Shown piece after piece: positions 11,142 through 63,784 of a stretch of DNA of 64,000 nt. A program made the translations under genes and the position numbers. Position 1 is the first letter of the stretch; every line of letters begins with the position of its first letter. The DNA comes from an uncultured Candidatus Sumerlaeota bacterium. Its GTDB lineage: Bacteria; CAYMEV01. Under the pieces are notes generated by a model. The model saw only the letters and a list, made by a program, of their open reading frames with translations, was not told where the DNA came from and did not search any database. The stretch lies in the NCBI GenBank assembly GCA_964389675.1, contig CAYMEV010000003.1, positions 65,109 to 129,108 on the forward strand, read 5' to 3'.

Positions 11142-11150
11142 TTCATCATT

Positions 11151-12275: not shown

Positions 12276-12277
12276 AT

Positions 12278-12718: not shown

Positions 12719-12740
12719 CTGTTTACCCCTTCTATTATAT

Positions 12741-13427
12741 TTATCTGTTTTTTTGGTTTATTGACAATCTTCCGCTCATATTCCAGGGAGAGAACCTTCT
12801 GAATCTTCTGTCCCAGGTGAGGATCTGTTTCTGCTCCTCCTGGTAAACATTCAGGTGTATATATAATGCAGTTGAAATTGCGCTGATTAATTCGCCGGTT
12901 AAAGGAGCAGATGAAATTTCCTTATGAGTCTTACTGAATATCTTTTTCTTTCCAAAATCGAGAGTAACAGGCACCAGGGAGAATATTGCCGCAAGAAGGA
13001 TAAGCCCTGCAAAAACTGTAGATACTCCAATAGATGTCACGATAAAACCATCAACAGTGGAAATTTCTGCGAGAGCCTTTACATTCCTGGTTACATTATC
13101 ATCGGCTTTCATCTTCTTGAGGTCCCTGTAAATAGCCTTTACCTTCTCATGGTAAAGCATCCAGTTGTCGTCATAGGTTTTTGTGTCTTCCGAAAGCAGT
13201 TTACTTGTTTTATCAAGTACCTCAGTGATAAGGATGCGGATATTGTCAGGCAGTGATGATGTTCTGCTGAGATAATCCTTAAGGTTTGAGACTGCCGGAT
13301 TGATCTTTTTCTCTGCCCGGGCCCTGGCATGGAATTCCTCCTGTTCTTCCTCTGCAGATATTGACATGCCCGCTGTTAATACCAGTGCCAGCAATAAACA
13401 AGCTGTTATTATTCTGTTAATATTCAT
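12741..13427 (-). CDS. OadG-like small membrane subunit (delta/gamma) with an about 130-aa N-terminal signal-peptide extension
   Basis: The C-terminal 100 aa (DGFIVTSIGVSTVFAGLILLAAIFSL...ISAISTALYIHLN) resemble the OadG anchor subunit. The N-terminal half carries a signal peptide. The true start and the odd C-terminal tail are uncertain. Confidence 0.4.
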   Translation of the reverse strand: MNINRIITACLLLALVLTAGMSISAEEEQEEFHARARAEKKINPAVSNLKDYLSRTSSLPDNIRILITEVLDKTSKLLSEDTKTYDDNWMLYHEKVKAIYRDLKKMKADDNVTRNVKALAEISTVDGFIVTSIGVSTVFAGLILLAAIFSLVPVTLDFGKKKIFSKTHKEISSAPLTGELISAISTALYIHLNVYQEEQKQILTWDRRFRRFSPWNMSGRLSINQKNR

Positions 13428-13438
13428 ATTGTTTTCTC

Positions 13439-32197: not shown

Positions 32198-33124
32198 ATG
32201 GCTGAAATTGTATACAGGGAAAACCAGGAAGAAAGGCTTATAACCCTTGATAAGGATTCATTTGTGATTGGCAGAAGCCCAAGCTGTGAAATTGCAATAA
32301 GCAGTGACACAATATCAAGAAGGCATGCAAAACTGGAAAAAAGGTCAAACCGGTATTATATTACTGACCTTGGAAGCAGGAATGGTGTTTTTGTCAATGA
32401 TGAAAAGATAGTTGAATCAGTACTGAAGGATGGAGATTTTATCAAGCTTGGTGTTTTTGAGTTTACCTTTCATGATAAAGAGCCTGTTATTGTAGACAGC
32501 AATAAGACAATACAGCAGGAGCAGAAGACCATTATGCTGGAAAACCCGCTTGAGAAATTCATATTAAAGGACCTTCCGGCATCTGAGGATACATATATTG
32601 AAAAAAAAGAAAAAGATAAAGTAATTGAAGATGATATAATTGCTGAAGACCGGCAGGAAAGTACGCCTGATGATGATGAAAGCGAAATTGAATCAGATGG
32701 ATACTTCCCCAACCTTCTGATCTTTCATGATGAAAAGGCATTCAGGGCTACCATAAAAAAGAACCGTAATACGATCGGAGGTTCTGCGATTTCTGATATA
32801 CCCATAAATCACGAAGGTTTTCCTGAATCAGCCTGTATTATCAGGAATGAAAAGGGCATTTTCTATTTAGTGGATGAATTTCAGACAGGGGAGATCATGT
32901 ATAATAATGTCCCTGTAATACATAAAAGACTGTTTGATAAGATGATATTTATGATTCAGGATGTGACTTTCCAGTTTATTTCCAATAAGAAGGGTGCTGA
33001 AGCAGTTTTTGAAAAAGTTTATGCTGTCTTCAGGATTTTTATTGAAAAACCTCTGATAGGCATGGCATTTGTTGCTGGAATTCTTATTCTGATCTCTCTT
33101 CTTCTTGTTATATTTTTATTATAA
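32198..33124 (+). CDS. FHA-domain protein (one clear and one probable FHA) with a C-terminal TM anchor; SctD-like cytoplasmic module
   Basis: FHA motif VIGRSP.CEIAI..DTISRRHAKL....YYITDLGSRNGVFVN. A second FHA-like block (NTIGGS...ACIIRNEKGIFYLVD). A C-terminal hydrophobic helix MAFVAGILILISLLLVIFLL. Confidence 0.65.
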   Translation: MAEIVYRENQEERLITLDKDSFVIGRSPSCEIAISSDTISRRHAKLEKRSNRYYITDLGSRNGVFVNDEKIVESVLKDGDFIKLGVFEFTFHDKEPVIVDSNKTIQQEQKTIMLENPLEKFILKDLPASEDTYIEKKEKDKVIEDDIIAEDRQESTPDDDESEIESDGYFPNLLIFHDEKAFRATIKKNRNTIGGSAISDIPINHEGFPESACIIRNEKGIFYLVDEFQTGEIMYNNVPVIHKRLFDKMIFMIQDVTFQFISNKKGAEAVFEKVYAVFRIFIEKPLIGMAFVAGILILISLLLVIFLL

Positions 33125-33140
33125 AAATTAAGGATATTTT

Positions 33141-33845
33141 ATGAGCCTGAGAAGCGAACCTTCTAATGAGCTGTCTGAAGAACTGATACAAAATTACCAG
33201 GATTATCTAAGAAAGATCGCATATTTTGTGAAGATTACGCTTCCTGATAATATTGAGATCGACGACCTGGTCCAGTATGGGGAGATCGGCCTGATAGAAG
33301 CAGCAAGAAAATTTGATCCGAAACTGGGTGTTTCGTTCAAGACATACAGCTATTACAGGATCAGGGGTGCTATATATGACGGGCTCAGGACCATGGGGCT
33401 TTTTAAGGCAAAACAGTATAAGAATCATGTAATGCGCCAGAAAATCAATGACCTGATGATGCAGGAAACAAATAATGTAAATATAAACAGCGATACCTGC
33501 AGAAATGATGACAGCGTTGAAAGACTGCGGGATATATTTTCCAGTGTTGCAACACTTATCACTCTTTCTTATGCATCTTATATGGACCATGAGGTACAGA
33601 ACGGCAATGATGATATAAATAAGGAGCTTATAACCGAGGAAACAAAATCCTTAATTATGAAGGCAATTGAACAGCTTTCCCATAAGGAAAGAAATGTTGT
33701 TAAGCTTTACTATTTTGATGAACTGACATTTGAAGACATCGGCAAAGAAATGGGGCTTTCAAAGAGCTGGATTTCACGTGTACATCTGCAGGCGATAAAT
33801 AAGCTTAAGCAGAAGCTTAAGCAAAGTAATATAACAACATATTGA
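33141..33845 (+). CDS. fliA: Sigma-28 (FliA/WhiG) family RNA polymerase sigma factor
   Basis: Sigma-70 region 2 (DLVQYGEIGLIEAARKFDPKLGVSFKTYSYYRIRGAI) and region 4 (LTFEDIGKEMGLSKSWISRVHLQAINKLK). 234 aa, typical of FliA. Confidence 0.8.
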   Translation: MSLRSEPSNELSEELIQNYQDYLRKIAYFVKITLPDNIEIDDLVQYGEIGLIEAARKFDPKLGVSFKTYSYYRIRGAIYDGLRTMGLFKAKQYKNHVMRQKINDLMMQETNNVNINSDTCRNDDSVERLRDIFSSVATLITLSYASYMDHEVQNGNDDINKELITEETKSLIMKAIEQLSHKERNVVKLYYFDELTFEDIGKEMGLSKSWISRVHLQAINKLKQKLKQSNITTY

Positions 33846-33897
33846 CAGATAGAATCGATAATCTATATGTAATGTTATATAAGGAGGTGTCGCAACT

Positions 33898-34359
33898 ATG
33901 GATCCTGTATCGTCAAAGACTGTAAAAAAAAGCATTAGCAATATTGCTGAGAAGAATATTCAGAATGAGATGAATAAAAATCTTCCGACAAATCCAGATA
34001 AACCTTCCAGCTTTGAGCAGCTTCGGCTTGATAAGGTAAATGAAATACCAAAGGATGCTGAACTTAAGGTTAACGAGGTTGGAAAGCAAAAAGATATGGA
34101 TATATCAAGCACGCAGAAAGTCCAGGACAATAATCCCATAGACGGCTTGAAAAACCTGACCGATAACCTTGAGAAAAGCAATGTAGAGCTTGATAATCTC
34201 ATCAAGAGTGTTATGCAGGATGGCAGGTCATTTTCACCGTCTGAACTGATGGCAATGCAAGCTCAGATATATCAGCTTACCAGGGAGATAGAACTTACCA
34301 GCAAGGTTGTTGAACAGGCCAACCAGGGCATAAAGACCATGCTGAATCAGCAAGTATAA
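33898..34359 (+). CDS. FliE-like or T3SS inner-rod-like protein
   Basis: The C-terminus (SELMAMQAQIYQLTREIELTSKVVEQANQGIKTMLNQQV) resembles the FliE C-terminus (...MQ...KLV.AYQEVMSMQV). Sits in the fliE position before the MS-ring gene. Confidence 0.35.
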   Translation: MDPVSSKTVKKSISNIAEKNIQNEMNKNLPTNPDKPSSFEQLRLDKVNEIPKDAELKVNEVGKQKDMDISSTQKVQDNNPIDGLKNLTDNLEKSNVELDNLIKSVMQDGRSFSPSELMAMQAQIYQLTREIELTSKVVEQANQGIKTMLNQQV

Positions 34360-34370
34360 GGAGAAACTGC

Positions 34371-35171
34371 TTGAAAAAAATAAAAATCTTTTTAACCATG
34401 TCTATTTTACTTATGATGTTCGTATCCTGCGGGAATACAGTTCTGTACCACGGGCTCTCGGAAAGGGGAGCAAATGAGATACTGGTCATACTTGAACAGA
34501 ATGGGATAGCGGGGGAAAAAGTACTGGATGAAACTCAAAAAAAGATCATGCTCTTTAATATTGTCGTGGCAAAAAGCGATAAGAACCAGGCTCTGGAAAT
34601 CCTGAAAGAGAAAGGCCTTCCAAGGATAAACCCGGTTGGCATGAATGAGATGTTCAGCGGGTCCAGCCTTATTCCCACCATTACAGAAGAAAAAGCCAAA
34701 TATCAGATAGCAATGCAGGGTGAGATCGAAAAAACCCTTCTGCAGATGCAGAATGTTATTTCAGCAAGGGTCCATCTTGTTATTCCGGATGCAGATAATG
34801 TCGAACAGCAGAATGAACCTGCGATAGCCAAGGCCTCTGTATTTTTGAAATACTACCAGGGCCTGCAGCAGACACCAATGTTTACGGAAAAGGATGTGCA
34901 GAATATTGTTGCAGGGGCAGTGCTTGAGCTGACTCCAGGCAATGTTACTGTAGTGCTTCAAAGGATACAGCCTGTCGAGGTATCCCAATCATCGCCAAAA
35001 TATACCAGTTTCATGTTCTATAATATCGCGCCTGAATCAAAAAAGAGCATGCAGATAACACTTGTTATTATCTTATCAGTGGTTTTTATACTTTTATTTG
35101 CTATAGTTATAATGTTCCTGAAGATCAAGGATTTGAAAACATCCCTAAGCATTATAAAAACAAAAAAATAA
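34371..35171 (+). CDS. SctJ/YscJ-like lipoprotein (truncated FliF-family MS-ring protein)
   Basis: Lipoprotein signal MSILLMMFVSC. CGNTVLYHGLSERGANEILVILEQNGIAGEKV resembles YscJ/EscJ C.EQLYTGLT.KEANQM.ALLQSNGI.AEK. ISARVHLVIPDADNVEQQNEPAIAKASVFL resembles both the FliF and SctJ ring-building motif. One C-terminal TM. 266 aa, versus about 550 for FliF. Confidence 0.7.
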   Translation: MKKIKIFLTMSILLMMFVSCGNTVLYHGLSERGANEILVILEQNGIAGEKVLDETQKKIMLFNIVVAKSDKNQALEILKEKGLPRINPVGMNEMFSGSSLIPTITEEKAKYQIAMQGEIEKTLLQMQNVISARVHLVIPDADNVEQQNEPAIAKASVFLKYYQGLQQTPMFTEKDVQNIVAGAVLELTPGNVTVVLQRIQPVEVSQSSPKYTSFMFYNIAPESKKSMQITLVIILSVVFILLFAIVIMFLKIKDLKTSLSIIKTKK

Positions 35172-35175
35172 TAAT

Positions 35176-36123
35176 ATGCAGGAAATTAAGACATTTGTAA
35201 GTCTTCTGGCCTTCCAGGATATAGACAGGAAGGATGACCTGCTTGAGTATCTCTGCAATGACTGTAAAGAGATCTGCGCGCAATACCTGCAGGAATTTGA
35301 AGGGAAAACTCAGGAAGAAATACATAAATTATCCCTGATTGAGCTTAAAGAGGATATCGCAAAAAATTTTCTGAAAATATACAGTTCTTTCCATTTCAGC
35401 TGGCTTGAAGATTTTTTCAGGAATGAAAGCCGGGAAACAATATCAACAGTCCTCAAATTCGTCCCTCTTGAGATGTCCGGCGCTATTCTCGGGTTATTTT
35501 CCGAGGAGGAAAGAAATGAGATCCTGCAGACAATACCAAGCTCATTTGTTAGCAGGGAGATAATGGAGATTCTTAAATTCAGCATTATTGAAAGGTACGG
35601 AGCGATTCCAGCTGATGCGGACCAGATTATCCGGAGTGACCAGATACTCAAGTTTCTTATGCAGAATGATGTTGATCTTACCAGCTTTCTTTCCTTTATA
35701 TATTCTTATGAAATATATGCTCTTTTAAGCAAGACAGTTTCTGCTGATAACAGAGCACAGATATGCTCTGAGATGAGTACGGAAAAAGATATAAATGCAC
35801 AGGTTGAATGGTTTAACAGGGCACATGCTTCAATTGATTTTGATTATACTGTATTTTCCAGAGCATGTGATTTCAGGATCTCTGTCAATAAGGGATACCT
35901 TATAATCCCCTTTATCAGGATTTTTACCTGCCTGCAGTCAAAGAACCTTATAAAAAGTGCTGCAAGGGCTATTTCATACAGGATGGAGATGTCAGCGGGG
36001 AATGATTTTCTGCTTTTTTGCGAGGACAATGAAAAAACAGCAAATCCAGTCAATGCAGAGATGAATTCAAAGAGACTGTCAGAAATAATACATAGCTATA
36101 AGTTATTTAAAAGCGAGGCTTAA
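35176..36123 (+). CDS. FliG/MgtE-N-like domain protein in the fliG position
   Basis: SRETISTVLKFVPLEMSGAILGLFSEEERNEILQTIPSSFVSREIMEIL resembles the FliG middle-domain pattern HPQTIALILSYL.PDQAAEIL..LPEELQAEVV.RIA. The C-terminal torque-helix motifs are not evident. Confidence 0.35.
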   Translation: MQEIKTFVSLLAFQDIDRKDDLLEYLCNDCKEICAQYLQEFEGKTQEEIHKLSLIELKEDIAKNFLKIYSSFHFSWLEDFFRNESRETISTVLKFVPLEMSGAILGLFSEEERNEILQTIPSSFVSREIMEILKFSIIERYGAIPADADQIIRSDQILKFLMQNDVDLTSFLSFIYSYEIYALLSKTVSADNRAQICSEMSTEKDINAQVEWFNRAHASIDFDYTVFSRACDFRISVNKGYLIIPFIRIFTCLQSKNLIKSAARAISYRMEMSAGNDFLLFCEDNEKTANPVNAEMNSKRLSEIIHSYKLFKSEA

Positions 36124-36125
36124 AA

Positions 36126-36770
36126 ATGTCATTTTCAGACGATACCAAAAAGGTGGTTATTCAGAAAAGTTCGGACGATATCATCGGCCCGCCTCCTGAG
36201 AGGAAGATCCTTACCAAACAGGAAATTGATGCATCAAAAATGGCTCAGACGATTATCGAAGAGGCAAAGAAGAAGGCTGAGGAGATAATAGGGGAAAAGG
36301 AAAAAATAGTAGAGGAAGCCAAAAATGAGGCTTACAATGAGGGTTATAAAAGCGGGCTTGAAAGTATCAATAAGATTCTTCTGGAGCTTAAGGACCTGAG
36401 GAACAATACAATTGTGGCCATGGAGTCTGAGATAGTAAAACTGGCTTTCAGGATAGCGAGGAAGATACTCGGATATGAAATGCAAAGGGACGATACAACG
36501 GTGTTGTCCATCGTTAAAGAGGTATTAAAGGCTTCAAGGCACCAGAAGTCTATTAAGCTGTCTGTAAACCCTGATGATTATAAAATAATAAAGCAGAACA
36601 GGGAGAGCCTTGTTGCTGTTCTTACAAAATGCGAAAGTTTCCTGATAGAGCCGAATGAACATATTTCAAAGGGAGGCTGTGAGATTGAGACGGAGATAGG
36701 AAATGTATCAGCAAACCTCGATACGCAGCTTGAGGTTCTGGAATCACTGCTCTTGAACAAGGAGGTATGA
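36126..36770 (+). CDS. FliH/SctL family T3SS ATPase stator-regulator
   Basis: Charged coiled-coil N-terminus ([35 protein letters not shown]) followed by a FliH-type C-terminal domain. Immediately precedes the ATPase gene. Confidence 0.6.
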
Positions 36771-38101
36771 AATTGGCTTCATCCCCCATTAAACTGGATA
36801 AGTACCTTAAACTGCTTGATACAGCAAGCACTGTAAAGGTAAGAGGGCGGGTAATTGAGCTTACCGGGCTTATTATAAAGGCTTCAGTACCCGGTGTCAG
36901 GATCGGCGAAACATGTTATATCGAGTCATATAACCGCGTATCGCCTCTTAAAGCAGAGGTAGTCGGATTCAAGGGAGATAATGTAATGCTTATGCCGCTT
37001 GGTGACCTGACAGGCATAGGGCCTGACAGCCAGGTGATACCCACAGGCAAATCCTTCAGCATAAGAATAGGGGACCAGCTTCTCGGCCATGTGCTCGATG
37101 GACTGGGACAGCCTCTGGATATAAGCGAGGAAGAGTTTCAAGGCTTTGATCTCGATACATATTCCGTTAATTCCGATCCCCCGGATCCCCTTAAGCGCAG
37201 AAGGATACTTGATTACCTGTCAATAGGGATCAGGGCAATTGACGGCCTGCTTACTGTCGGAGAAGGGCAGAGGATGGGCCTTTTTGCAGCAGCTGGTGTA
37301 GGCAAGTCAACCACAATGGGAATGATAGCCCGCAATACTGAAGCTGAAGTGAACGTTATTTCATTGATAGGGGAAAGAGGAAGAGAAGTAAGGGATTTTA
37401 TGGAAGAAAGCCTTGGAGAGGAAGGTTTGAAGAAATCAATTGTCGTTGTGGCCACATCTGATAAACCATCTCTTGTAAGGCTTAAATCAGCATTTGTTGC
37501 CACGGCCATAGCGGAATATTTCCGTGATAAAGGCAGAAAAGTGATGCTTATGATGGACAGTGTCACAAGGTTTGCAAGAGCACAGAGGGAAGTTGGGCTG
37601 GCCCTGGGTGAACCGCCTGCAAGGCAGGGATACCCCCCGTCTGTCTTCTATATGCTTCCCAAACTCCTTGAGAGGACAGGGAATTCAGACAGGGGATCAA
37701 TTACGGCTTTCTATACTGTCCTGGTCGCGGGGGATGATATGACAGAACCTATTGCAGATGAGGTAAGGTCCATACTTGACGGGCATGTTATCCTTTCACG
37801 CGAAATGGCATCAAGGAATCATTATCCTGCTATAGATGTGCTAAGAAGCGTCAGCAGGGTAATGACTGCGGTAGTGGACAAGGAGCATATAGAGTTTGCG
37901 GGCAGAATGCGTGACCTTCTGGCTACATACGAGAAACAGAAAGACCTTATACTAATCGGAGCATATAAGAAAGGCTCTGATGAAAAGGTAGACAAGGCAG
38001 TTGAAATGATTGACAGGATCAACGAGTTCCTGAAACAGGGGCTTTATGAGAAGTGCTATATTGATGAAACGATTGAGAAACTGAAAGAGATGTTTGCATG
38101 A
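36767..38101 (+). CDS. Type III secretion ATPase (FliI/SctN)
   Basis: Walker A AAGVGKST, a Walker B region and full-length F1-like architecture. 444 aa. Overlaps the fliH-like stop by 4 nt. Confidence 0.9.
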
Positions 38102-38601
38102 GCGGCAGGATAGTATACAGGCTTGAACCGGTCCTTAACCAGAAGGAAGAAGAGAAGAACGAAGCTACCCGGAATCTTGCCTTTGCACAGAAGAAGCTTG
38201 AAGATATCAGGGAAGAGATCAGGGGGCTTGAGAACCTTGTAATAAAAAGGGTTGAAGAGAAAAAGCAGGCGGAGCTTGCTCACTTTGAAAAACTCAGTAC
38301 AGAGGGGATGGCTGCAAAGTCTATTCAAGGACACCAGGCTGAAATGAAAGCCATTGATATATCAGTTGAGGAGATAAAGGAAAAGATAAGCTTAAAAAAA
38401 ATAGAGGAAAAGAATGCCGAACAGGATCTCAATACTGCTAAGGACAGGCTGGTTGAAGCAACCAAGGAATACAAGACCATGGCGAAACACAAAGAAAATT
38501 TCATCAGGGAACAAAGGGCCATTCTCAGCAAAAAAGAACAGAAGGAAATGGACGAAATTTCCAGTTTGATATATAATTTCAAGGGGAAAGGAGATGAATG
38601 A
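38098..38601 (+). CDS. FliJ/SctO-like coiled-coil chaperone-escort protein
   Basis: 167 aa, predicted all-helical and charged. In the position that follows the ATPase in T3SS operons. Confidence 0.45.
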
Positions 38602-39259
38602 TATGGAAAAGGTATCGACCACAACACAGAAAACAAAAGCAGCACCCAGCGATACCAAGCAGACAAAAGACGCAAAACAGCCATCAGAAAAGTCTTTTGC
38701 AAAGGTATTTCACCGAAAGGGTGAAGATCTGTCAATGCATGACTCAAAGAAGGATATAAATAAGCAGTTAAGGAAGGATATAATACTGGGTGAAGACACA
38801 GAGAAGAAAGAGAAAGGAAAGGAAGGAAGTGAAGAAAAGCTTGATGGATTCATGATCCCGAGACTCATTTCAGAAAAATCAGGTGCTGAAGGCATAAAGG
38901 AATCCATTAAGGTCGGGGAAGCGAAAGTAAAGCTTGACGAGAATCTTATAAACAGGATTGTTGAATCTGCCAGGATCGTGAGAAAAGGTGATACAGCTTC
39001 AATGGAGATCAATATCAAATCGGATGTTTTTGAAAACCTTAAGCTTATTGTCACAGCTGAGGGTAATGCAGTTAAAACAGAGTTCATTACGGACAACCCA
39101 ATGCTTAAGGGGCTTATTAAGGATTCAATGGTCGATCTTGAGCAGAGCCTCGTTGCAAGAGGCCTTGAGGTTCTTGATATTGTTGTCAGGGATGAGCCTC
39201 CTAAGTCTGAAAGCCAGAAACAATACGATGAGTACAGGAGAATAAATGAGCAGAAGTAG
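38594..39259 (+). CDS. FliK/SctP-like length-control / substrate-specificity-switch protein
   Basis: Lys/Glu-rich low-complexity N-terminus. The C-terminal about 100 aa (ENLINRIVESARIVRKGDTASMEINIKSDVFENLKLIVTAEGNAVKTEFITDNPMLKGLI) are T3S4-like. In the fliK position. Confidence 0.4.
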   Translation: MNDMEKVSTTTQKTKAAPSDTKQTKDAKQPSEKSFAKVFHRKGEDLSMHDSKKDINKQLRKDIILGEDTEKKEKGKEGSEEKLDGFMIPRLISEKSGAEGIKESIKVGEAKVKLDENLINRIVESARIVRKGDTASMEINIKSDVFENLKLIVTAEGNAVKTEFITDNPMLKGLIKDSMVDLEQSLVARGLEVLDIVVRDEPPKSESQKQYDEYRRINEQK

Positions 39260-40709
39260 CCTACCAGTCAATATCAGGTCTGTATCTGAGCTGGAGCATA
39301 AAATGAAAATTATTGCAAATCAGCTTGAATCAGACCTTATCTATGAATTCAGCCAGGAGATTGAGAACCTGTTTAAGGATAAGCACATACTTATCAGGTT
39401 CCAGGATAAAGTTGAATTGTCCATGTTTGACAAAGAAACTGATCGTGTTGAAGAAATCTTTTCATACTCAATGGATAAAGGGGAGATAACTCTTGGAAAA
39501 GCCCCAAGCAATGATATCGTCATTATTGAAAGGTATATAAGCAGAGAGCATGCCTTTTTCAAGCTGACTGACAAAGGGGTCTTCCTTACTGACAACGGAT
39601 CAACAAATGGTACTTATATTAATGGAGTAAAAATGAATCCGAATGACCCCCAGCAGCTGAATAATGAAGATATACTGCATTTTGGGGCGCAGAAGATCAA
39701 GTTCTGCATAAAGAAAGAGGCTTCAGATGATATAAGGCTTAAATCCTCCTGTTCCGTAAGCATTGAAAGGAACAGCCCCATTATAAAACCGATCTATAAG
39801 TCTCCGATAATGATCTGCAGATTTATCAAGAGCAATAAAAAAGTAATATTTGAGACAGACCGCTATTTTTTCTATGATATAATAAATTCGCTTCTTGGTT
39901 TTGGCGAAACTGAGGGATTTGTCTATGAAAAACCTGTAACAGAGATCGAAGAGGGCGTTTTCCTGTATCTGTTTGCACTGGTTCTTGATAAAATCAACAG
40001 GATTCTGATACCTGAAGAGGATATTCTGGTATTTGAAAAAAAGGGCACCGGGGATGACCTTATTATCAGCGGAGAATATCTCCAGCTGGGGTTGTGTATT
40101 AATGCAAACAGGAATAAATACGGCATCAGGATATATATTGAAGGTGATTCTTTAGGCATAAAATCAAGCGTCAATAACGGATTCAGGCCTGAAATACTCG
40201 GCATACTTTCTGCTGAACCTGTAAGCCTTGACCTGCATGCAGGCAAGGCAAGCCTTTCATACGATGAACTCAAATCCATTAATAATCAGTCCATACTTAT
40301 AATAGATAAATGGTATCTTAATTCGAGAACTCCCCAGGCGGACGATGTGATTGTCGTAAGCCAGCCTGATACGGGCATATGCTTCAGGGGGCGGGTATCA
40401 GATAATAAGAGTAAATTTCAGGTTATTATCGATCAAATATTCAAAAAGGAGAATCTATCTATGGATGAATTTGATACGGAGAAAGATAAGGTTATCGGCA
40501 ATCTTGATACAGAAATATATGTGGTGCTTGCATCAAAGAAGATTGCACTTTCTGAGCTTTCAAAGATAAAAAAGGGAGATATTCTGGATTTTGAGGGTAA
40601 AATTGATAATAAGGTGAGCCTTGTTGTCAATAAAAGCGTTTTCGCAAAGGGAGAGCTCATTGAATATGAAGGAAAGATAGGCGTTGAGATTACCGATGTC
40701 CTTTATTAA
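39246..40709 (+). CDS. FHA domain fused to a FliM-like middle domain and a FliN/SpoA C-terminal domain (SctQ-like C-ring protein)
   Basis: FHA: ITLGKAPSNDIVIIERYISREHAFFKLTDKGVFLTDNGSTNGTYING. FliM-like block IINSLLGFGE....TEIEEGVFLYLFALVLDKI, resembling IDRLLGG.G....LTEIE. SpoA/FliN C-terminus VVLASKKIALSELSKIKKGDILDFEG...SLVVNKSVFAKGELIEYEGKIGVEITDV. Confidence 0.7.
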   Translation: MSRSSLPVNIRSVSELEHKMKIIANQLESDLIYEFSQEIENLFKDKHILIRFQDKVELSMFDKETDRVEEIFSYSMDKGEITLGKAPSNDIVIIERYISREHAFFKLTDKGVFLTDNGSTNGTYINGVKMNPNDPQQLNNEDILHFGAQKIKFCIKKEASDDIRLKSSCSVSIERNSPIIKPIYKSPIMICRFIKSNKKVIFETDRYFFYDIINSLLGFGETEGFVYEKPVTEIEEGVFLYLFALVLDKINRILIPEEDILVFEKKGTGDDLIISGEYLQLGLCINANRNKYGIRIYIEGDSLGIKSSVNNGFRPEILGILSAEPVSLDLHAGKASLSYDELKSINNQSILIIDKWYLNSRTPQADDVIVVSQPDTGICFRGRVSDNKSKFQVIIDQIFKKENLSMDEFDTEKDKVIGNLDTEIYVVLASKKIALSELSKIKKGDILDFEGKIDNKVSLVVNKSVFAKGELIEYEGKIGVEITDVLY

Positions 40710-49552: not shown

Positions 49553-51541
49553 ATGGAAAACGAAAGATTCAAGGGATATATACTTTTCGAAAAATTCAGG
49601 AAGACTGAACTTATCGAGAGTTACAGGGGTGTAATGCCCAGTGCAAACCCTGCGCATGACCAGATTGACCTGCTGAATACTCAGCTGAGTTCCAATGCAA
49701 AATTCTGCAATATTCTTTCTGAGCACATGGAGAAGATAAAAAGAAATACCGACCTTCAGGGTATTTTTAAGATCAAGGAATCTGGCACCTTTGATGACCA
49801 TTTCTATGTTGTGAAGGATTATAAGAAAGCAAAAAGCCTGAAAGATATAATCACTGAGTCAAATGAGCAATACTTTCCGATCAATCTCGACCATTCAGTT
49901 TATATAGTCAGACAGCTCTCTGCCTTTTTCCAGTATATCCTTGCCAATGTGGACAAAGGGACTGTCCTTTATTTTATTGATCCCGAGGATATAATAATTA
50001 CCTTTGAGGGAGAGATTTTCCAGGATAATCTTTATCTTGCCGATGCTATCACCCAGACATTCGGTAAAAGCATTCCCAGATTCGGGAATTCAGTGTCCTA
50101 TTTTGCCCCTGAATACATAAGCAAAGGAATAATCAGCGAAAAGAACATTATTTTTTCTCTTGGGGCGGTCTTCTATGAGATATTAAGCAATAAAAGGCTT
50201 ATGCCTGATAATATTGATGAATTTAAGAAATCCCTGGATTCTTTTTCATACCCTGAAGAAAGTGATTTTGAGGAGACAATTGACCAGCAGCTTCTGGATA
50301 TTCTGACCAAGATGATACAGATAGACCCCGATGAGAGGTATGAAGACCTGAATGCCCTTCAGGCAGACCTTGATGAGTATATAGAGGAAGGTGATTTTTC
50401 ACCGACGACCTTCCATTTTGTATTCTTTCTTGAGACGCTTTTCAGGGAATATACCGAGAAGCTTCCGAAGGTTATGGAGCAGGAGATAGAAGAAGCCAAG
50501 CACCTTGAGCTGGAAGCAATAAGGGAATCTGAAGAGGAAATGCTTCAGCAGAAGATGGAAGAAACAAAGAAAGAGAGCAAATTCCCTGTACTTCCAGTGG
50601 TCATAGTGCTTCTTTTTATCGGCCTTATTATAGTGGGCCTTACATTGCCGAGAGCATGGAAAGATGAGGCTGAGGCCATGCTTGAGGAGAAGAAGAAGGA
50701 ACTTGAAAAGGCACAGACATATGACCAGACAGAACCTGCAGAAGTCCCTGCAGAAGTGGATACTGAGCCTGCAGAGCCCGATGAGGATTCAGGCCAGACA
50801 GAGCCTGTTGTTACTGAGCCCCCTGTACAGCCTGAAGACATAACAGAAGAGCCTCCGGTACAGGATGATGCGGAACAGAGGAGGCTGGAAGCAGAAAGGG
50901 CTGAAAGAGAGAGGATCGAACGGGAAAGAAGGGAACAGGAGAGGCTTGCTCAGGAGCAGGCGGAGAAGGATCAGGCTGAAAAGGATAGGCTTGACCGTGA
51001 AGAAAAACAGAAACTGGAAAGGATAGATAATCTGGTACAGACTGCACAGTCACAAATAGCAGATAAGAATATTGATGAAGCAAAAAAATCTGTTTCCAGC
51101 ATACTGGAGATCGATCCGGAGAACGAAAAGGCAAATGATCTCAGCATTGAGATTGATAAGATAGAAAGAGACCTGTCCAAACAGCGCAGGGCAGAGCTTG
51201 TAAAAATCCCTATCAACATATCAGAGGCAGATACAGAACCGACTCTTATAAACAGTCCCCGCATAGACCTGCGGCAGGTCGAGGGGCGAATACCCCGGGA
51301 TATCCTCAGGGACCTTAAGAACAGGGTAAACAGAATAACTGTAAGGATGCTTGTATCAGAAAATGGGGATGTAGAGTCTGTTGAGGAAATATTTGTGCAG
51401 AAGTCTGTTTATGGGACATTTGAGAGGACAGGATTGATCGCGGAGATCGATAAGCAGATAAGGTCAGCGAAATATACACCTGCTATTAAGGATGGGATGA
51501 AAAGGAAGTGTTATGTGACACTGACATTTCCCTGGAATTAA
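49553..51541 (+). CDS. TonB-like membrane protein with a cytoplasmic Ser/Thr-kinase-like (pseudokinase) domain
   Basis: Kinase-fold remnants: YFAPEYI matches the APE motif; NIIFSLGAVFYEILS matches subdomain IX. No G-loop, HRD or DFG. One TM helix (FPVLPVVIVLLFIGLIIVGLTL). An acidic Pro/Glu-rich and ER-repeat linker. A C-terminal TonB_C-like domain (ITVRMLVSENGDVESVEEIFV...AKYTPAIKDGMKRKCYVTLTFPW). GGAGGG SD 7 nt before ATG 49553. Confidence 0.55.
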   Translation: MENERFKGYILFEKFRKTELIESYRGVMPSANPAHDQIDLLNTQLSSNAKFCNILSEHMEKIKRNTDLQGIFKIKESGTFDDHFYVVKDYKKAKSLKDIITESNEQYFPINLDHSVYIVRQLSAFFQYILANVDKGTVLYFIDPEDIIITFEGEIFQDNLYLADAITQTFGKSIPRFGNSVSYFAPEYISKGIISEKNIIFSLGAVFYEILSNKRLMPDNIDEFKKSLDSFSYPEESDFEETIDQQLLDILTKMIQIDPDERYEDLNALQADLDEYIEEGDFSPTTFHFVFFLETLFREYTEKLPKVMEQEIEEAKHLELEAIRESEEEMLQQKMEETKKESKFPVLPVVIVLLFIGLIIVGLTLPRAWKDEAEAMLEEKKKELEKAQTYDQTEPAEVPAEVDTEPAEPDEDSGQTEPVVTEPPVQPEDITEEPPVQDDAEQRRLEAERAERERIERERREQERLAQEQAEKDQAEKDRLDREEKQKLERIDNLVQTAQSQIADKNIDEAKKSVSSILEIDPENEKANDLSIEIDKIERDLSKQRRAELVKIPINISEADTEPTLINSPRIDLRQVEGRIPRDILRDLKNRVNRITVRMLVSENGDVESVEEIFVQKSVYGTFERTGLIAEIDKQIRSAKYTPAIKDGMKRKCYVTLTFPWN

Positions 51542-54583: not shown

Positions 54584-55390
54584 ATGAATTATACAGTGCA
54601 TCTGATGTCATTTTATCTTGATATCTTCTTTCCCCCGATATTAAAAGAAACTGTTGATAACAGATTATCCAGTTTCCGGAAGGATGTCAGCAGCAGTGAC
54701 AATAGAATAACAGTTGAACTTGAGCTTCAGGAGGAGAGACTGCCTGTTCAGTCATTGATCCCGTATGCTCTGATTAGAAACGGCAGAATAGAGTTTTTCC
54801 GCTATGATATGGAAGGGCACATCAGTATTCCTGATAGATATCTTCACCTGAAGCTGCTGAACAATATATACAGCTTCGATACTGCACTCAGGGTCATATT
54901 CTCGCTTCTTCTCATTCAGAATGGAGGGTTTCTGATCCATTCAAGCTCTGTTTCAGTGGGGCAGAAAGGAATTCTTTTTATCGGAGTGTCTGGATCGGGC
55001 AAAACGACAATTGCCCATCTGAACAGGGAAAATAAGATCCTTAGTGATGAGATATCAGCAGTTGTGAAAGAAGGAGGAAAATACTACCTGTACGGAAATA
55101 CCTTTTTCAGCGATCTTGAGGAAATAGGGCATGACTGTTCTGCAGAACTGAAGCAGATATATTTCCTGAATAAAGCGCCCTATGATGATATAAAGCCTAT
55201 AGTTAAAGCTGATGCACTAAAAATGATCTTAAGGAATGTCATGAATTTTTCAAAAGAGGCTGCTTTCTCTGAGATGATCCTGAACAATGCCTTAAGTATA
55301 CTCCGTTCAGCAGGTGCTGACAATATATATTTTCTGCCTCACAGGGAGATATATAAGAAAATTTATGAACATTTATCAATTGAAAACTGA
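54584..55390 (+). CDS. HprK-related P-loop kinase-like protein
   Basis: GGFLIHSSSVSVGQKGILFIGVSGSGKTTIA resembles the HPr kinase C-domain pattern LHG..V...G.GVL..G.SG.GKS..A. Confidence 0.4.
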   Translation: MNYTVHLMSFYLDIFFPPILKETVDNRLSSFRKDVSSSDNRITVELELQEERLPVQSLIPYALIRNGRIEFFRYDMEGHISIPDRYLHLKLLNNIYSFDTALRVIFSLLLIQNGGFLIHSSSVSVGQKGILFIGVSGSGKTTIAHLNRENKILSDEISAVVKEGGKYYLYGNTFFSDLEEIGHDCSAELKQIYFLNKAPYDDIKPIVKADALKMILRNVMNFSKEAAFSEMILNNALSILRSAGADNIYFLPHREIYKKIYEHLSIEN

Positions 55391-55406: not shown

Positions 55407-56579
55407 ATGGAGGTTATAACTGTGAAAAGGAACATTATCCTGATCTTTATCGTGCTTTCTTTTGCATCTGCCATGTTCAGCCAGGATGCAGCCCTGTCAG
55501 ACAGATACTCTGATTTTCAGGCTAAGATGAACGATGAGTATGCAAATATAAAAAGCCAGGAAGAATACTCGGTCTTTGTGGATAATTACAAGAAAGGGCT
55601 TTCCCAGCTTATTAAGGATACTGATTATAAAAAGCTTGATACCGGGGATTATTTAACATATCTGGAAATTAAAATGATACTTGAAAAATATGAGGGCATG
55701 AATGATATAATCATATATGGAGAGAAAAAATATCCTGACACCTTAAACGAGATATTGCTCGTTAAAGCTGACCTGATGGCTAATACCGGAGAACCCGGAA
55801 AAGCGGTCTTAATAATCGATGATATCAAAAAGAGGGACATGGATTTTATTAAAAGCAACCTTGATGATATATTTGACATAATGTCAGTACTTTCCTCAGA
55901 GGAATTTTATGAAGAAGCCTATAAGCTCAGGGATTATTTTCTCCTGGGAAAGCTGACAGACAGATACCAGTATTATATGTCAGGCATGATAAGCTCTGTT
56001 TTCCTCAGCCTGGACAAGATTGAAGAAGCAAAGGCCTATCTGGAGAAGCTTAAAGGCATTTATGAAGATGATGCAGTAAAAAAGGTCATAGATAATGAGA
56101 TCAGCCAGATCTCTCTTATAGGGAAAATGCCGCCTTCAATTGGCCTCGCAGGCAATATAAACGGTGATTCATCCCTCGAGAAGCACAAGGGCAAGGTCAT
56201 AATCGTTGATTTCTGGGCGCCATGGTGTAATCCCTGCAGGAAGGCAATACCTCATCTTGTTGAGATCTATAATGAGTACAGGGAAAAAGGGGTTACAGTA
56301 ATTGGAATTACACAGCTGTACGGATCATATAATGATGGCAAAACAGCCAGGAAGGATATTGCACCAGAGGAAGAAACCAGCCTGATCAAGGGCTATATAA
56401 CCGATAATAATATTGTATATCCAAACGGTATAGCTTCAGGCAGGAGTGAGATAGATAAATATCATGTCATGGGTATTCCGCACCTTGTATTCATAGACAG
56501 GGAATTTAAGATAAGGCATATTAAGGTCGGCTATATGGAAAAAGAAGCTGTTGTGAAGATAATTGAAGGGCTCTTATAG
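55407..56579 (+). CDS. Secreted TPR-like / thiol-disulfide oxidoreductase (TlpA/ResA family)
   Basis: Signal peptide, a helical repeat region, and a C-terminal thioredoxin fold with WAPWCNPC. Confidence 0.7.
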   Translation: MEVITVKRNIILIFIVLSFASAMFSQDAALSDRYSDFQAKMNDEYANIKSQEEYSVFVDNYKKGLSQLIKDTDYKKLDTGDYLTYLEIKMILEKYEGMNDIIIYGEKKYPDTLNEILLVKADLMANTGEPGKAVLIIDDIKKRDMDFIKSNLDDIFDIMSVLSSEEFYEEAYKLRDYFLLGKLTDRYQYYMSGMISSVFLSLDKIEEAKAYLEKLKGIYEDDAVKKVIDNEISQISLIGKMPPSIGLAGNINGDSSLEKHKGKVIIVDFWAPWCNPCRKAIPHLVEIYNEYREKGVTVIGITQLYGSYNDGKTARKDIAPEEETSLIKGYITDNNIVYPNGIASGRSEIDKYHVMGIPHLVFIDREFKIRHIKVGYMEKEAVVKIIEGLL

Positions 56580-60073: not shown

Positions 60074-63000
60074 TTGGAAAAGCCTGATGTTTTCAAACGC
60101 TACAGTATCGGCGAGAAAATTGACTTTGAAAGATATGAAACATATATAGTCTATGATAACCTGTTTGAAAGGAACAAGAGGCTTACCTTTCTAACCCAGG
60201 AAAATCTGAGGAAAACAAATATCAAAAATCTCCTGAATCTTTATATCCTGTTTTCCAACCATAATATAAAGAGTATGGAATATCTTTTTGAGTGGGGCAG
60301 ATTATCTGATAACAGCTATTATTTTGTCAGGGACGCAAGAAGCCTTCTGAAAATCAAACAGCATTCCTTTCTTATTGAGGACCTGAAGCTTTTGATGCTT
60401 GATATACTCATAGCCCTGTACGGGATACACAGAAACGGCAGATACTACGGCAAGGTTCATGAAAACAGCATATATTACTGCTTTAACAGGTATGACAGCC
60501 AGAGAAACATACATTATGTCCTGTCAGCATTATCAGACAATATGAAATATAATGAGCAGCAGCTGGCGCTGGCACAGAAGTGGGATATAATGAGCTTCGG
60601 GATCACTATCCTGAAGCTTCTTTCAAAGGATAATTCAGATGCCCTTCTGAATGAGAATGATTATTCAAGGCTCTCTGAAAAGCTCACAGAGTACAATATT
60701 GACAGCGAGACCAGGGAGATCCTGATAGAACTGCTGGATGCAAATGAAGATGTACTTTATTATATAAAGAAGATCCTGAGCAATGATGAAATGGACAGGG
60801 ATCCCCAGCTTAGGGCTGTATACAACGGCCTGCTCTTTTCACGGTTTCCAAAAAACCATATAGGCATATCAAATATAAAAGAACTGGACGACCCTGATAA
60901 AAGGCTGTTCATTCTGGAGGGAAGCGAGGGAGCTGGAAAAACCGAGCTTCTGAATTTGCAGAGCCAGATCCTCAGGCAGAAAGGGCATTCCATAATAAGG
61001 ATAGAGTCCCTTTCTGAGACAAATACCAGGATAAGCATCTACAACAATTTGCTTAATTATATCAGGAATTTCCTCAGTGATAATGATTCAAAGAGCCAGG
61101 GGAGCAGTCCCGGCTTCAGCGAGCATCATCTTCTTTATGGCCTTTCAATGCTCAGGGACAGAACCAGCCCGGTACTGATGATCGATGACCTGGAGTATGC
61201 TGAGACTGACATATACAACCTAATAGGCATGTTTATCAGTTCTGATATTCCAGTATATGTATCGCACAGGGCCAGTACAGATGGTAATGATCTGATGCAT
61301 GAACTTGTAAGAAGTACAGGCAGTGCAGATATTAAATATTTCAGCCTTGATGACTGGAACAGGGGCCAGATCGAAGAACTGCTGAGAATAGCATTTCCTT
61401 CATACAGAAAAGATGTTTTTGAATTCATGCTCAGCAAACTCTGCAGTTATGGCATTGACAAGCCAAAGGATATAATGAGGATACTGTTCCAGATAAATAC
61501 CTATGCAGGGCTTGATGAGATAGAGACCGGAAAGCTTTTAAGGATTATTACAGGCATAATATCCAAAAATCTTATCCGTAAGCCATTTTACAGTGAGATC
61601 TCAGATATACAGAAGGAGATCCTTATAATCCTCTTTCTATATCCTGGCGGGCTAAAAAGGCTTGCTGATATAATACCTCTTTCTGAAGAAGATGTCTCTG
61701 GTATTATTGAGCCGATGATGAAGGAGGGGTATATTTATGAGAAAAACGGTATCTACAGTGTAAATCGCGAATTAATCAGCAATAATTTAATTTTGGATGA
61801 GAATCCCAGATATATCAGGAAGGTTCATAAAAAGATAGCCAATTTCCTGATCCAGGAAGCAAAAAAGACAAAAAAATACTCTCCCCTTATAATTGCGGAG
61901 CATTTATTCAACAGCGGAAATAAATCCGAAGCAGCACCCTTCTATTTTAATGCTGCTATTAATTTTGAAAAGAGCTATAACTTCGATCAGGCTATAAAGT
62001 ACTATAATATTGCTTTATCAGTTTATAGAAGCTTCAAGAAAACCTTATCACTGGAAAAACAGAGGAAGATCTACCTGAGCCTTTTTGATCTTTATATGAA
62101 ACGGGGGAATCTTTCAAATGCCCTTCAATCACTGAAGAATATGCAGACAGCTTTCAGCAATGACTTTGAATATTATAAAAGATATTCGTATTATTACAGG
62201 AAGAAAGGCGATTATAAAAAAGCGATCACATATATAAACAGGGCTGCTGAGATTATTGCAGGGAAAAAGGATAAGAAGAAGAGACTGGAGATTCAGGCAG
62301 ACCTTATCAATATCCTGATTGAGGTCGGCAAATTTGAAAAAGCCTATAAGCTCATTAACGAATCGCTTGCCTATCAGAAAGATAACGGTCTGCTTGACAA
62401 CAGGGGATATCTGCTTAATCTGCTGGGTATTGTCTATCTGCAGTTCGGTGCTTATGATAAAGCCGAGAAATGCCTGATCGAGGCATCCGAGCTGGAGATG
62501 ACAACAAAGAACTATCTTGTGCTCCCTCTCATATTCAATAACCTCGGGATAATCTACCTTGAAAAGGGTGAATTTAAACGCTCATTATCCTATTATTCAA
62601 AGGGCCTGGATATCTGCCTGAAGGTTAATGATATTATAGGCATCAGCAGGGGCTATCACAATATTGGCGTACTCTGCAAGAACAGCGGACAGCTTTCCGA
62701 GGCCGAGAAATATTTTATGAAGGCAAAGATATACCACGAGAGGTCAAATCTAAGGTATGGCTATTCCAAGGACCTCCAGCAGCTTGGGAACCTGTATACA
62801 ATGAAGGGTGAGCTGAACAGGGCTTTCAGTCTGCTGAAGGAATCCATGAGAGCAAGCGACAGGCTCTATGATAAGGACAGCTCGGCGGAAACTCTTGAAT
62901 ACCTTGGCATTCTTTATTTTTTCCTCGGATCCTACCAGGAATCCATACAGAGCCTTAAAGAAGGAAAAGAAAAGGCAATGAAAACCAGGAACATGAACCT

Positions 63001-63784
63001 TATAATATCCATCAACACTCACCTGTCACTTATAAACATAGACCTTGGAGACTTTGAATCCTGCCTGAAGCATGCAGGGCATGCACTCAATGAACTGAGA
63101 AAGATAAGCTATACTAAAAATATTTTCCTGAATAACTCATTATGCGATATATGCGCAAAATATATTGATATGCAGAAGAATGGCCCTGAAGTGATCCAAG
63201 TCCAGCTGGCCTGCGCTTCTGATCCGGGCTGTAATTATCCTGAAGACATAAAGAAGTCCATAGAGGCGGAAACATTACCCATTTCAAAATTCAGGCTTGC
63301 CAAAATTTACCTTGACTACTTTCTTTCAATTCACTATTTAAGAGAAGAAACGGGAAAGCTGGATAAAACCCTGTCCGGCAGGATACTGGATACGATCCTG
63401 TATCTGTCTGATATTATGAAAGACCTGAACATAACAAAGAATTCCAGGTATTACGACCTGTACTACCGTTTCTATGACTGCCTGATCCAGGCTGATATAA
63501 AAAAGGATGAGAGCTTTATAGCAAATCTGCTGAAAAAATCAATTGAATCACTTGATACATGTATCAATAAGGACTACAGTGAACTGATATGGAGATGGGA
63601 GTTCCTGACAGGGCTGTGCTACCATTTATTCTCTAACAGAGAAAAGGCAAAGGAGCATTTCCGAAATACATGTTCAAGGCTTGAAAGCACAGGGGAGAGC
63701 CTTCCGGAGCCATACAATGAATATTACCTGAAAGTACCCTTCCGGAAAGCTGTCTATAACAGATCTAAGAGTTATTGCCGATAA
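60074..63784 (+). CDS. STAND-type regulator: pseudokinase-like N-terminal domain, P-loop NTPase and TPR repeats
   Basis: N-terminal kinase-fold remnants: IHRNGRYYGKVHENSI has HRN in place of HRD, and WDIMSFGITILKLL matches subdomain IX. Paralogous to the N-terminus of 49553. Walker A LEGSEGAGKTELL. Multiple C-terminal TPR-like repeats. 1236 aa. Confidence 0.65.
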   Translation: MEKPDVFKRYSIGEKIDFERYETYIVYDNLFERNKRLTFLTQENLRKTNIKNLLNLYILFSNHNIKSMEYLFEWGRLSDNSYYFVRDARSLLKIKQHSFLIEDLKLLMLDILIALYGIHRNGRYYGKVHENSIYYCFNRYDSQRNIHYVLSALSDNMKYNEQQLALAQKWDIMSFGITILKLLSKDNSDALLNENDYSRLSEKLTEYNIDSETREILIELLDANEDVLYYIKKILSNDEMDRDPQLRAVYNGLLFSRFPKNHIGISNIKELDDPDKRLFILEGSEGAGKTELLNLQSQILRQKGHSIIRIESLSETNTRISIYNNLLNYIRNFLSDNDSKSQGSSPGFSEHHLLYGLSMLRDRTSPVLMIDDLEYAETDIYNLIGMFISSDIPVYVSHRASTDGNDLMHELVRSTGSADIKYFSLDDWNRGQIEELLRIAFPSYRKDVFEFMLSKLCSYGIDKPKDIMRILFQINTYAGLDEIETGKLLRIITGIISKNLIRKPFYSEISDIQKEILIILFLYPGGLKRLADIIPLSEEDVSGIIEPMMKEGYIYEKNGIYSVNRELISNNLILDENPRYIRKVHKKIANFLIQEAKKTKKYSPLIIAEHLFNSGNKSEAAPFYFNAAINFEKSYNFDQAIKYYNIALSVYRSFKKTLSLEKQRKIYLSLFDLYMKRGNLSNALQSLKNMQTAFSNDFEYYKRYSYYYRKKGDYKKAITYINRAAEIIAGKKDKKKRLEIQADLINILIEVGKFEKAYKLINESLAYQKDNGLLDNRGYLLNLLGIVYLQFGAYDKAEKCLIEASELEMTTKNYLVLPLIFNNLGIIYLEKGEFKRSLSYYSKGLDICLKVNDIIGISRGYHNIGVLCKNSGQLSEAEKYFMKAKIYHERSNLRYGYSKDLQQLGNLYTMKGELNRAFSLLKESMRASDRLYDKDSSAETLEYLGILYFFLGSYQESIQSLKEGKEKAMKTRNMNLIISINTHLSLINIDLGDFESCLKHAGHALNELRKISYTKNIFLNNSLCDICAKYIDMQKNGPEVIQVQLACASDPGCNYPEDIKKSIEAETLPISKFRLAKIYLDYFLSIHYLREETGKLDKTLSGRILDTILYLSDIMKDLNITKNSRYYDLYYRFYDCLIQADIKKDESFIANLLKKSIESLDTCINKDYSELIWRWEFLTGLCYHLFSNREKAKEHFRNTCSRLESTGESLPEPYNEYYLKVPFRKAVYNRSKSYCR

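Follow-up and report, generated by a model that had tools for sequence, protein, structure and literature searches.

Within the 64,000-nucleotide stretch of DNA analysed here (the window, part of contig CAYMEV010000003.1 of an uncultured Candidatus Sumerlaeota bacterium), an open reading frame (ORF) on the forward strand encodes a single-pass inner-membrane pseudokinase that ends in a TonB_C-type domain (Table 1). The frame can be opened at ATG 49538 or at ATG 49553 and closes at 51541. We prefer ATG 49553, as did the first-pass annotation of the window, because GGAGG lies 8 nt upstream of it and because the five close homologs begin with MENE or MQER; the product is then 662 aa long. An NCBI protein (P0001), encoded on a 224-kb contig, is 100% identical to it, and the gene is kept, together with its synteny, in relatives at 55-72% identity.

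From N- to C-terminus the protein comprises a pseudokinase domain with a kinase fold, one transmembrane (TM) helix, an acidic Pro/Glu- and ER-rich linker and a TonB_C-like domain. This is the order that the first-pass annotation had proposed from the sequence, and hydropathy, composition and AlphaFold2 (AF2) modelling bear out its account of the TM helix and linker. That annotation had let its case stand or fall with an N-terminal kinase fold and a C-terminal match to the TonB_C/TolA_C folds; Foldseek and hhalign recovered both. Since the protein has no signal peptide, and since a kinase fold is expected in the cytoplasm, the N-terminus and the 344 residues that precede the TM helix presumably lie on the cytoplasmic side.

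Table 1. Positions in the window of the pseudokinase gene, the segments of its product and the two genes upstream
Feature	Position	Strand	Basis or remark
Two co-directional upstream genes: 299-aa protein without a Pfam match, and SPL-like radical-SAM protein	47575..49498	+	SPL 49.7 bits
Shine-Dalgarno sequence GGAGG	49540..49544	+	8 nt before ATG 49553; alternative ATG 49538 overlaps GGAGG
Whole gene, pseudokinase-TM-TonB_C protein, 662 aa	49553..51541	+	Stop codon counted in
Hanks-type kinase fold, residues 1-280, all catalytic motifs degenerate	49553..50392	+	Pfam, StkP/PknB alignment, Foldseek, motif table (Table 2)
Family signature EEGxFSPTTFHFVFFLETLFR, residues 278-298, onset of juxtamembrane helix	50384..50446	+	Invariant in clade
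Charged cytoplasmic juxtamembrane helix AKxLELEAIRESEEEML.QK, residues 299-344, conserved	50447..50584	+	AF2 helix 285-339
Single TM helix PVLPVVIVLLFIGLIIVGLTL, residues 345-365, no SHLS motif, no His	50585..50647	+	Kyte-Doolittle 2.9; regex test
Acidic Pro-rich linker, residues 366-438, predicted disordered	50648..50866	+	33% D+E, 15% Pro; pLDDT <50 at 388-438
ER/K-rich long helix (stalk), residues 439-503	50867..51061	+	31% acidic, 25% basic, no Pro; AF2 helix 440-503, pLDDT 70-92
TPR-like helical hairpin, residues 504-552, one copy	51062..51208	+	Weak Fis1_TPR_C match; AF2 helices 507-520 and 525-550
Divergent TonB_C-type domain, residues 553-662, two clade-specific insertions, YP region replaced	51209..51538	+	hhalign, AF2, Foldseek

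A degenerate kinase domain and a divergent TonB_C domain

Residues 61-270 match the Pfam Pkinase model at 44 bits (cut-off 31.7), and a sequence comparison with the PDB gave StkP, Stk1 and PknB as its closest solved relatives, at E 3e-8 and weaker. From 7 sequences AF2 gave a moderately good model of the full protein (mean pLDDT 67), with values of 80-92 in the C-lobe of the kinase domain and 50-65 in the N-lobe; Foldseek matched it to PknB kinase domains with an E value of 9e-13 and target TM-scores of 0.7-0.79. Two more specialized NCBIfam models were tried and rejected. PknB_PASTA_kin scored 61 bits where 450 are required, and the model for the antiphage MADS6 kinase 48 bits where 460 are, both so far below threshold that they indicate generic kinase similarity.

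Is the domain catalytic? The states of the catalytic motifs were read from alignments to StkP and to a canonical relative, P0010, and every one is degenerate (Table 2). The degenerate states are invariant across the window clade, that is, the window protein and its close homologs. The window protein retains the APE motif, subdomains IX-XI, a DxWSxG-like motif (FSLGAxFYE) and the subdomain XI Arg. On these motif states the N-terminal domain is a pseudokinase, and the kinase fold lacking G-loop, HRD and DFG that was noted at first pass is confirmed by Pfam, by Foldseek and by the motif alignments. It could be argued that the domain is an atypical kinase or a nucleotide-transferase whose catalytic residues have migrated, and hence an active receptor kinase in its own right. 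Activity, or a new chemistry, has indeed come to light in some "pseudokinases", as in the glutamylation catalyzed by SidJ (PMC12599244), and acidic residues near the former catalytic loop (D143, D146, D/E158) are conserved. We nevertheless regard an enzymatic function as very improbable: the Gly-rich loop, the β3 Lys, the HRD Asp, the catalytic-loop Asn and the DFG Asp have all been lost together, clade-wide, and bacterial pseudokinases that are degraded in all three motifs are nearly always devoid of ATP binding (PMC12599244).

Membership of a known pseudokinase family was also considered. The GLW pseudokinases, which are mostly proteobacterial, read GLW where HRD would stand, and their β3 strand is poly-Leu (LLLL/W) (PMC12599244). 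The window protein has LYF and QIDL at these places, and its relatives in Acidobacteriota have HGF and VVLLRV, so assignment to the GLW family was rejected.

Table 2. Catalytic motif states and general properties of the window protein and of the two classes of related proteins
Site or property	Canonical	Window protein	Pseudokinase class	Active class
Members found			29 (Acidobacteriota)	9
Length			~650 aa	~1000 aa
Gly-rich loop	GxGxxG	RKTELIESYRG (no Gly loop)	DxLGETFRA	GGMAEVWKA
β3 strand	VAIK	QIDL (Lys lost)	VVLLRV	VAIK
Catalytic loop (HRD position)	HRD	LYF	HGF	HRD
Catalytic-loop Lys	K	D		
Catalytic-loop Asn	N	D		
Mg-binding motif (DFG position)	DFG	NLY	GFE	DFG
Extra domain			None	N-terminal receiver (REC) domain

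The C-terminal domain is harder to recognize. The Pfam TonB_C match in the window protein is sub-threshold (12.6 bits, E 0.19, with a cut-off of 24.6), BLASTP could not align the window C-terminus with the TonB_C end of P0006, and a profile of the C-termini of the clade alone recovered no TonB chain from the PDB sequences. A hidden Markov model (HMM) from the clade alone was also run against 5,967 ORFs of related loci, and its top ~20 matches were almost all C-termini of kinase-TonB_C proteins. When the clade profile was compared by hhalign with the TonB_C ends of the relatives, which themselves pass Pfam TonB_C at up to 1e-17, the probability was 97.3% (E 1.7e-11). A dedicated AF2 model of the domain was made from 5 sequences (pLDDT 82, pTM 0.69), and the first 17 PDB matches that Foldseek returned for it were nearly all TonB C-terminal domains (CTDs), with FusB and HasB besides. 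The best was 6i97_D (E 7.8e-4); probabilities reached 1.0, target TM-scores were 0.5-0.6, and 1u07 and 9dc4_T were also among the top TonB CTDs. The best matches included TonB CTDs from P. aeruginosa, E. coli, Salmonella, Neisseria and H. pylori; matches to TolA CTDs were much weaker (E >0.7).

The C-terminal domain is thus homologous to TonB_C and has the TonB-CTD fold, a relationship seen only at the profile-profile and fold levels. In this respect the TonB_C-like C-terminus of the first-pass annotation was borne out by hhalign and Foldseek, although Pfam stayed below threshold. The domain is also the best conserved part of the protein, with a mean column identity of 85% against 73% for the whole, which points to a working binding domain. 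In the juxtamembrane segment ahead of the membrane, many of columns 311-345 are invariant in the window clade.

The PTTF family and its active sister class

Close relatives of the window protein are few. A search of 5.8 billion sequences gave five proteins at 55-100% identity, besides two partial metagenome contigs, and P0003 and P0228 were the only full-length representatives among 1.84 billion clusters. A scan of species-representative genomes added about 40 more distant full-length proteins, 20-26% identical, and Acidobacteriota (Thermoanaerobaculia, Holophagae and Vicinamibacteria) account for nearly all of them. These relatives fall into two classes, one with degenerate and one with intact kinase motifs (Table 2); members of both have a single TM helix and end in TonB_C. 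The motif PTTF(N/H)xxFFxxxLFR is common to the window clade and the 29 Acidobacteriota pseudokinases and is absent from the active class, and the window protein therefore belongs in the pseudokinase branch. It carries all four marks of this PTTF family: a degenerate kinase domain, the PTTF motif, a single TM helix and a TonB_C end.

The active proteins (REC-Pkinase-TM-TonB_C; P0010, P0229, P0233 and P0235) form a direct sister family with the same layout of TM helix, stalk and TonB_C, but they differ in keeping all the catalytic motifs, in having an N-terminal receiver and in lacking PTTF..FF..LFR; they are likewise uncharacterised. One of them, P0229, a protein of 1174 aa, has a REC domain, an intact kinase domain, a TM helix, 3-4 TPR-like units and a TonB_C domain of the window type with the same insertions (P0229 and P0231 both have TPR matches as well as multiple matched stretches). 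The kinase domain of P0229 is 60-61% identical to the active kinases of Acidobacteriota and only ~21% identical to the window-clade pseudokinases, whereas its C-terminal domain is nearest to those same pseudokinases (38-40%, E 1e-20). In Acidobacteriota, too, the C-termini of the active and pseudokinase classes resemble one another. Kinase domains thus sort according to class, and TonB_C domains according to lineage.

The contigs encoding P0229 come from the same sample (SRR29564167) as P0002, an ortholog of the window protein. They match the window in guanine-plus-cytosine (GC) content (0.41) and in tetranucleotide composition (r 0.96-0.98, against 0.69 for a GC-matched control). The shared sample and matching composition indicate that one lineage probably encodes both the pseudokinase and a P0229-type kinase.

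Proteins combining Pkinase and TonB_C are already in the databases, where they have been labelled automatically as "TonB family protein" (JGI). We found no account of the kinase-TonB_C architecture in the literature on TonB and pseudokinases, on kinomes or in the kinase atlas. A 2025 review lists seven bacterial pseudokinase families (ActPs1-3, GLW, CP1, DYD and DLHK) and makes no mention of TonB or Acidobacteria (PMC12599244). The pseudokinase-TM-TonB_C family is undescribed but widespread, being common in Acidobacteriota and present also in at least one deep lineage. We regard it as a variation on known kinds of protein, namely membrane pseudokinases and TonB-like proteins with cytoplasmic domains.

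Genomic neighbourhood

In the close clade the gene order is GT2, 299-aa protein, SPL-like radical-SAM protein, the pseudokinase gene, a convergent dCMP deaminase, (HDOD), a GAF protein, ScmC, a TPR-thioredoxin protein and STAND. The 299-aa gene and the SPL-like gene stay beside the pseudokinase gene in all the clade contexts (L081-L084), and they may form an operon. As listed, the two upstream ORFs overlap by ~80 nt, so the true start of the SPL-like gene is probably later. Further downstream, a 268-aa P-loop protein (54584-55390), whose orthologs match Pfam ScmC (PF27840), is followed by a TPR-thioredoxin/AhpC lipoprotein (55407-56579), and this pair is kept downstream of the pseudokinase gene in L082 and L083.

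The 1236-aa STAND-like protein at 60074-63784 has a weak AAA_22 match and many TPRs, and its ortholog in L083 is 49% identical. The first-pass annotation had taken its N-terminus to be kinase-like and paralogous to that of the pseudokinase. No such relationship could be detected: BLASTP between the two gave E 2.3 and hhalign a probability of 0.5%, and the N-terminal profile of the pseudokinase ranked the STAND protein 148th of 149, after generic kinases (HMM E 0.05). The kinase-like character is likewise unproven, as the first ~260 residues of the STAND protein had no Pfam match (kinase included) and no match among PDB sequences. In L082 a Pkinase-AAA_16-TPR protein with intact motifs occupies the analogous position, and its MAFFT alignment with the STAND N-terminus is the one hint that the latter may be kinase-like; it is not a STAND ortholog, because the similarity is confined to the TPR region.

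Upstream, positions 32198-43957 hold a cluster resembling a non-flagellar type III secretion system (T3SS), with an FHA plus YscD-like protein (32198-33124), YscJ/FliF (34371-35171), an EscN-type ATPase (36767-38101), a FliJ/YscO-like protein, an unusual FHA-FliN_C fusion (39246-40709) and homologs of FliP/Q/R and FlhB (41048-43957). The cluster is present in L081 and missing from the syntenic place in L083, and so behaves as an indel between close relatives. Since L083, the context of P0005, keeps the GT2, hypothetical, SPL-like and pseudokinase genes without it, a functional tie between the pseudokinase and the T3SS-like cluster with its FHA proteins is doubtful, and we set this link aside as weak.

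Between the T3SS-like cluster and the pseudokinase lies an FHA-GGDEF protein (45747-46703), a phosphothreonine reader joined to a diguanylate cyclase, which is also found upstream in L081. This protein and the two in the secretion cluster that carry FHA domains suggest that Ser/Thr-kinase signalling operates in this genome, with the kinase encoded outside the window.

Other lineages have other neighbours. In genomes of the Thermoanaerobaculia type the PTTF pseudokinase gene directly follows ruvX and mltG (YceG) on the same strand, and a convergent gene for a CsgG/LpoB-like lipoprotein comes next; the ruvX-mltG-pseudokinase arrangement is seen in L007 (8183-11881), in L008 (1822-4709) and at about 10 other Acidobacteriota loci. 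At L165/L166 (region 9351-13525) the P0229 gene comes after a stand-alone receiver gene, and it adjoins an Amidase_3 gene. The receiver gene, with the REC domain of P0229 itself, suggests two-component input into the Hanks kinase. The peptidoglycan-related genes in these other lineages may be a hint of a link to the envelope, though they are not evidence of one.

The Lon protease encoded at 1566-3872 gives an idea of the host. It has only five relatives at 58-75% identity, and further matches (Omnitrophica, Deltaproteobacteria, Firmicutes, Syntrophomonadaceae) fall below 50%. The pseudokinase shows the same pattern, and the host appears to sit in a very poorly sampled deep lineage.

Sensing, force transduction or tethering

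What does a pseudokinase do with a TonB_C domain? The protein is like TonB and TolA in its single TM helix, in its Pro-rich and helical periplasmic spacer and in having TonB CTDs as best PDB matches. It differs from them in that a pseudokinase region of ~340 aa stands in the cytoplasm in place of a very short N-terminus (TonB proteins are generally without a cytoplasmic domain; PMC8262864), as well as in the two insertions, the replaced YP region and the sub-threshold Pfam match of its C-terminal domain. It also differs in the TM helix. TonB and TolA couple to their stators through a TM signature that reads Ser-X3-His-X6-Leu-X3-Ser (SHLS), the Ser-His pair of which contacts ExbB or TolQ, and the His is reported to be essential (PMC12215075). 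A regular-expression search for S-x3-H, or for any His, in the TM core found none in the 47 family members, and in control runs the E. coli TonB and TolA TM segments given in PMC12215075 both matched. The candidate small membrane proteins of the window, the genes conserved around 38 related loci and the contigs of the clade likewise yielded no ExbB, ExbD, TolQ or TolR gene. The first-pass statement that the protein mirrors TonB except for the kinase domain was therefore too strong, and as far as sequence can tell the protein would not be an energy transducer of the TonB/TolA type driven by the proton-motive force.

The opposite case can be put as follows. A genuine transducer would engage through its TM helix a stator of the ExbBD, TolQR or AglRQS kind encoded elsewhere in the genome, and its TonB_C domain would pull on an outer-membrane partner while the pseudokinase gated or localised the motor, as GltJ does within the Agl-Glt machinery. 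The fold and homology of the TonB_C domain fit this, the Pro-rich spacer and long helical stalk recall TonB and domain II of TolA, stator genes need not adjoin the genes they serve, and only 64 kb of the genome is visible. There is also a precedent in the GltJ protein of the Myxococcus Agl-Glt machinery, in which 377 cytosolic residues lead into a single TM helix, followed by a flexible stretch in the periplasm and by TonB-C; the cytosolic part works as a regulatory switch or as a scaffold, and GltJ is believed to act together with the Agl motor (PMC11135422). GltJ/GltG is the closest architectural analog of the window protein, but the likeness is architectural only: the cytosolic modules of GltJ are ZnR and GYF domains, and GltJ acts within a 17-protein motility complex that has its own stator. 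Domain and neighbour scans of the window found no ZnR or GYF domain in the protein and no glt or agl genes nearby. The missing Ser-His pair, the lack of MotA/ExbB- or ExbD-type genes and the replacement of the YP region speak against force transduction, and the working kinase and REC domain of the sister protein point to signalling instead. We consider a transducer unlikely; the role of the family is probably to monitor the cell envelope and not to drive transport.

Could the protein be a passive tether? Its TonB_C domain would then attach to peptidoglycan or to a protein of the outer membrane, with the ER/K helix as a rigid ruler that sets the width of the periplasm or anchors a cytoplasmic assembly at a fixed site of the envelope, and with the pseudokinase as a docking surface that does not signal. 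The ER/K-rich helix of ~65 residues is modelled with high confidence, and peptidoglycan-related genes neighbour the family elsewhere (mltG and CsgG/LpoB-like in Acidobacteriota, Amidase_3 beside P0229). A structural role at peptidoglycan has a precedent in SjdR (TonB1) of Anabaena, a TonB-like protein whose N-terminus has an atypical extension in the cytosol and whose TonB-box-binding end is altered; it acts on septal peptidoglycan and not in siderophore uptake (PMC8262864). SjdR resembles the window protein in being TonB-like with a cytosolic extension; it differs in having no kinase fold, in its truncated C-terminal domain and in coming from another lineage. A ruler, however, should keep its length, and the stalk is poorly conserved in both length and sequence, with one TPR-like unit here and 3-4 in the sister. 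The strongly conserved juxtamembrane helix and kinase C-lobe, along with the active REC-kinase sister, suggest information transfer. A mere tether or spacer thus seems to us quite unlikely.

The reading that we favour, tentatively, is that the window protein is a non-catalytic, envelope-sensing receptor or scaffold paired with the REC-kinase sister; the pairing, the ligand and the direction of signalling are all points that we infer. The coupling of envelope events to a cytoplasmic scaffold that was suggested at first pass is still the most sensible interpretation of the layout, now that the layout is confirmed. On this proposal the dead Hanks-kinase domain (~280 aa) and the juxtamembrane helix would lie on the cytoplasmic side, and the periplasmic part (disordered acidic/Pro segment, rigid ER/K helix, TPR-like hairpin and TonB_C domain) would be long enough to arrive at the peptidoglycan or the outer membrane. 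The partner would be a sister protein with REC domain, active kinase, TM helix, stalk and TonB_C, of which P0229 is the example. As the two proteins share the same lineage-specific version of TonB_C, they would dock on a common envelope ligand or on each other; candidate ligands are a TonB-box-like strand of an outer-membrane protein, and peptidoglycan. Occupancy or tension at the TonB_C end would be relayed through the stalk, the TM helix and the juxtamembrane helix, and the pseudokinase domain might then regulate the active kinase allosterically, scaffold it, or serve as its phospho-acceptor platform.

Several observations weigh against this proposal. The sister gene is not in the 64-kb window, and its presence in the same genome is deduced only from co-occurrence in the sample and from composition; as to the two classes occurring together in single Acidobacteriota genomes, the 80 of 356 loci that were covered included one (L025) with two matches. 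The lineage-wise likeness of the C-termini could in part reflect composition drift (40% versus 69% GC), although the shared insertions speak against that source. The Foldseek E values of the C-domain are modest (7.8e-4 to 0.1, TM 0.45-0.6) and come from a model of five sequences, and loss of the YP region could mean that the domain no longer binds TonB boxes. Finally, the neighbourhoods differ by lineage (SPL and dCMP deaminase here, ruvX-mltG and CsgG/LpoB-like in Acidobacteriota) and give no coherent functional hint.

A further comparison is with receptor kinases such as PknB and StkP, the proteins most similar to it in kinase fold, which likewise have a cytoplasmic kinase fold, one TM helix and an extracytoplasmic ligand-binding domain; unlike theirs, the ectodomain of the window protein is TonB_C and not PASTA or another type. 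Membrane proteins in which a fully degenerate pseudokinase acts as a scaffold are known in the pseudokinase domain of MviN and in EssB/YukC (PMC12599244). Taking the comparison further, we raise as a speculative and somewhat doubtful idea that the PTTF pseudokinase and the REC-kinase sister form an unrecognised trans-envelope receptor pair of diderms, the counterpart of the PASTA kinases of monoderms. Their TonB_C domains, co-evolving within each lineage, would monitor the condition of the outer membrane or peptidoglycan, perhaps through mechanical tension on the ER/K helix and without a motor of the ExbBD type; the dead kinase would be an allosteric switch for the live one, and the latter would also take two-component input through its REC domain.

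These results carry a caution against automatic "TonB family protein" labels, since the motif by which TonB engages its motor is missing from this family. Hardly any experimental work has addressed bacterial pseudokinases, and the window protein defines an eighth family of them, one that spans the membrane and has a clear signature motif. If the pairing is real, it would offer a tractable model for how information from the envelope is turned into Ser/Thr phosphorylation in diderms, and an instance of TonB_C being reused for sensing and not for energy transduction. The receptor-pair idea, if true, would mean a new sensor use of the TonB_C module and a new logic of bacterial kinase/pseudokinase signalling.

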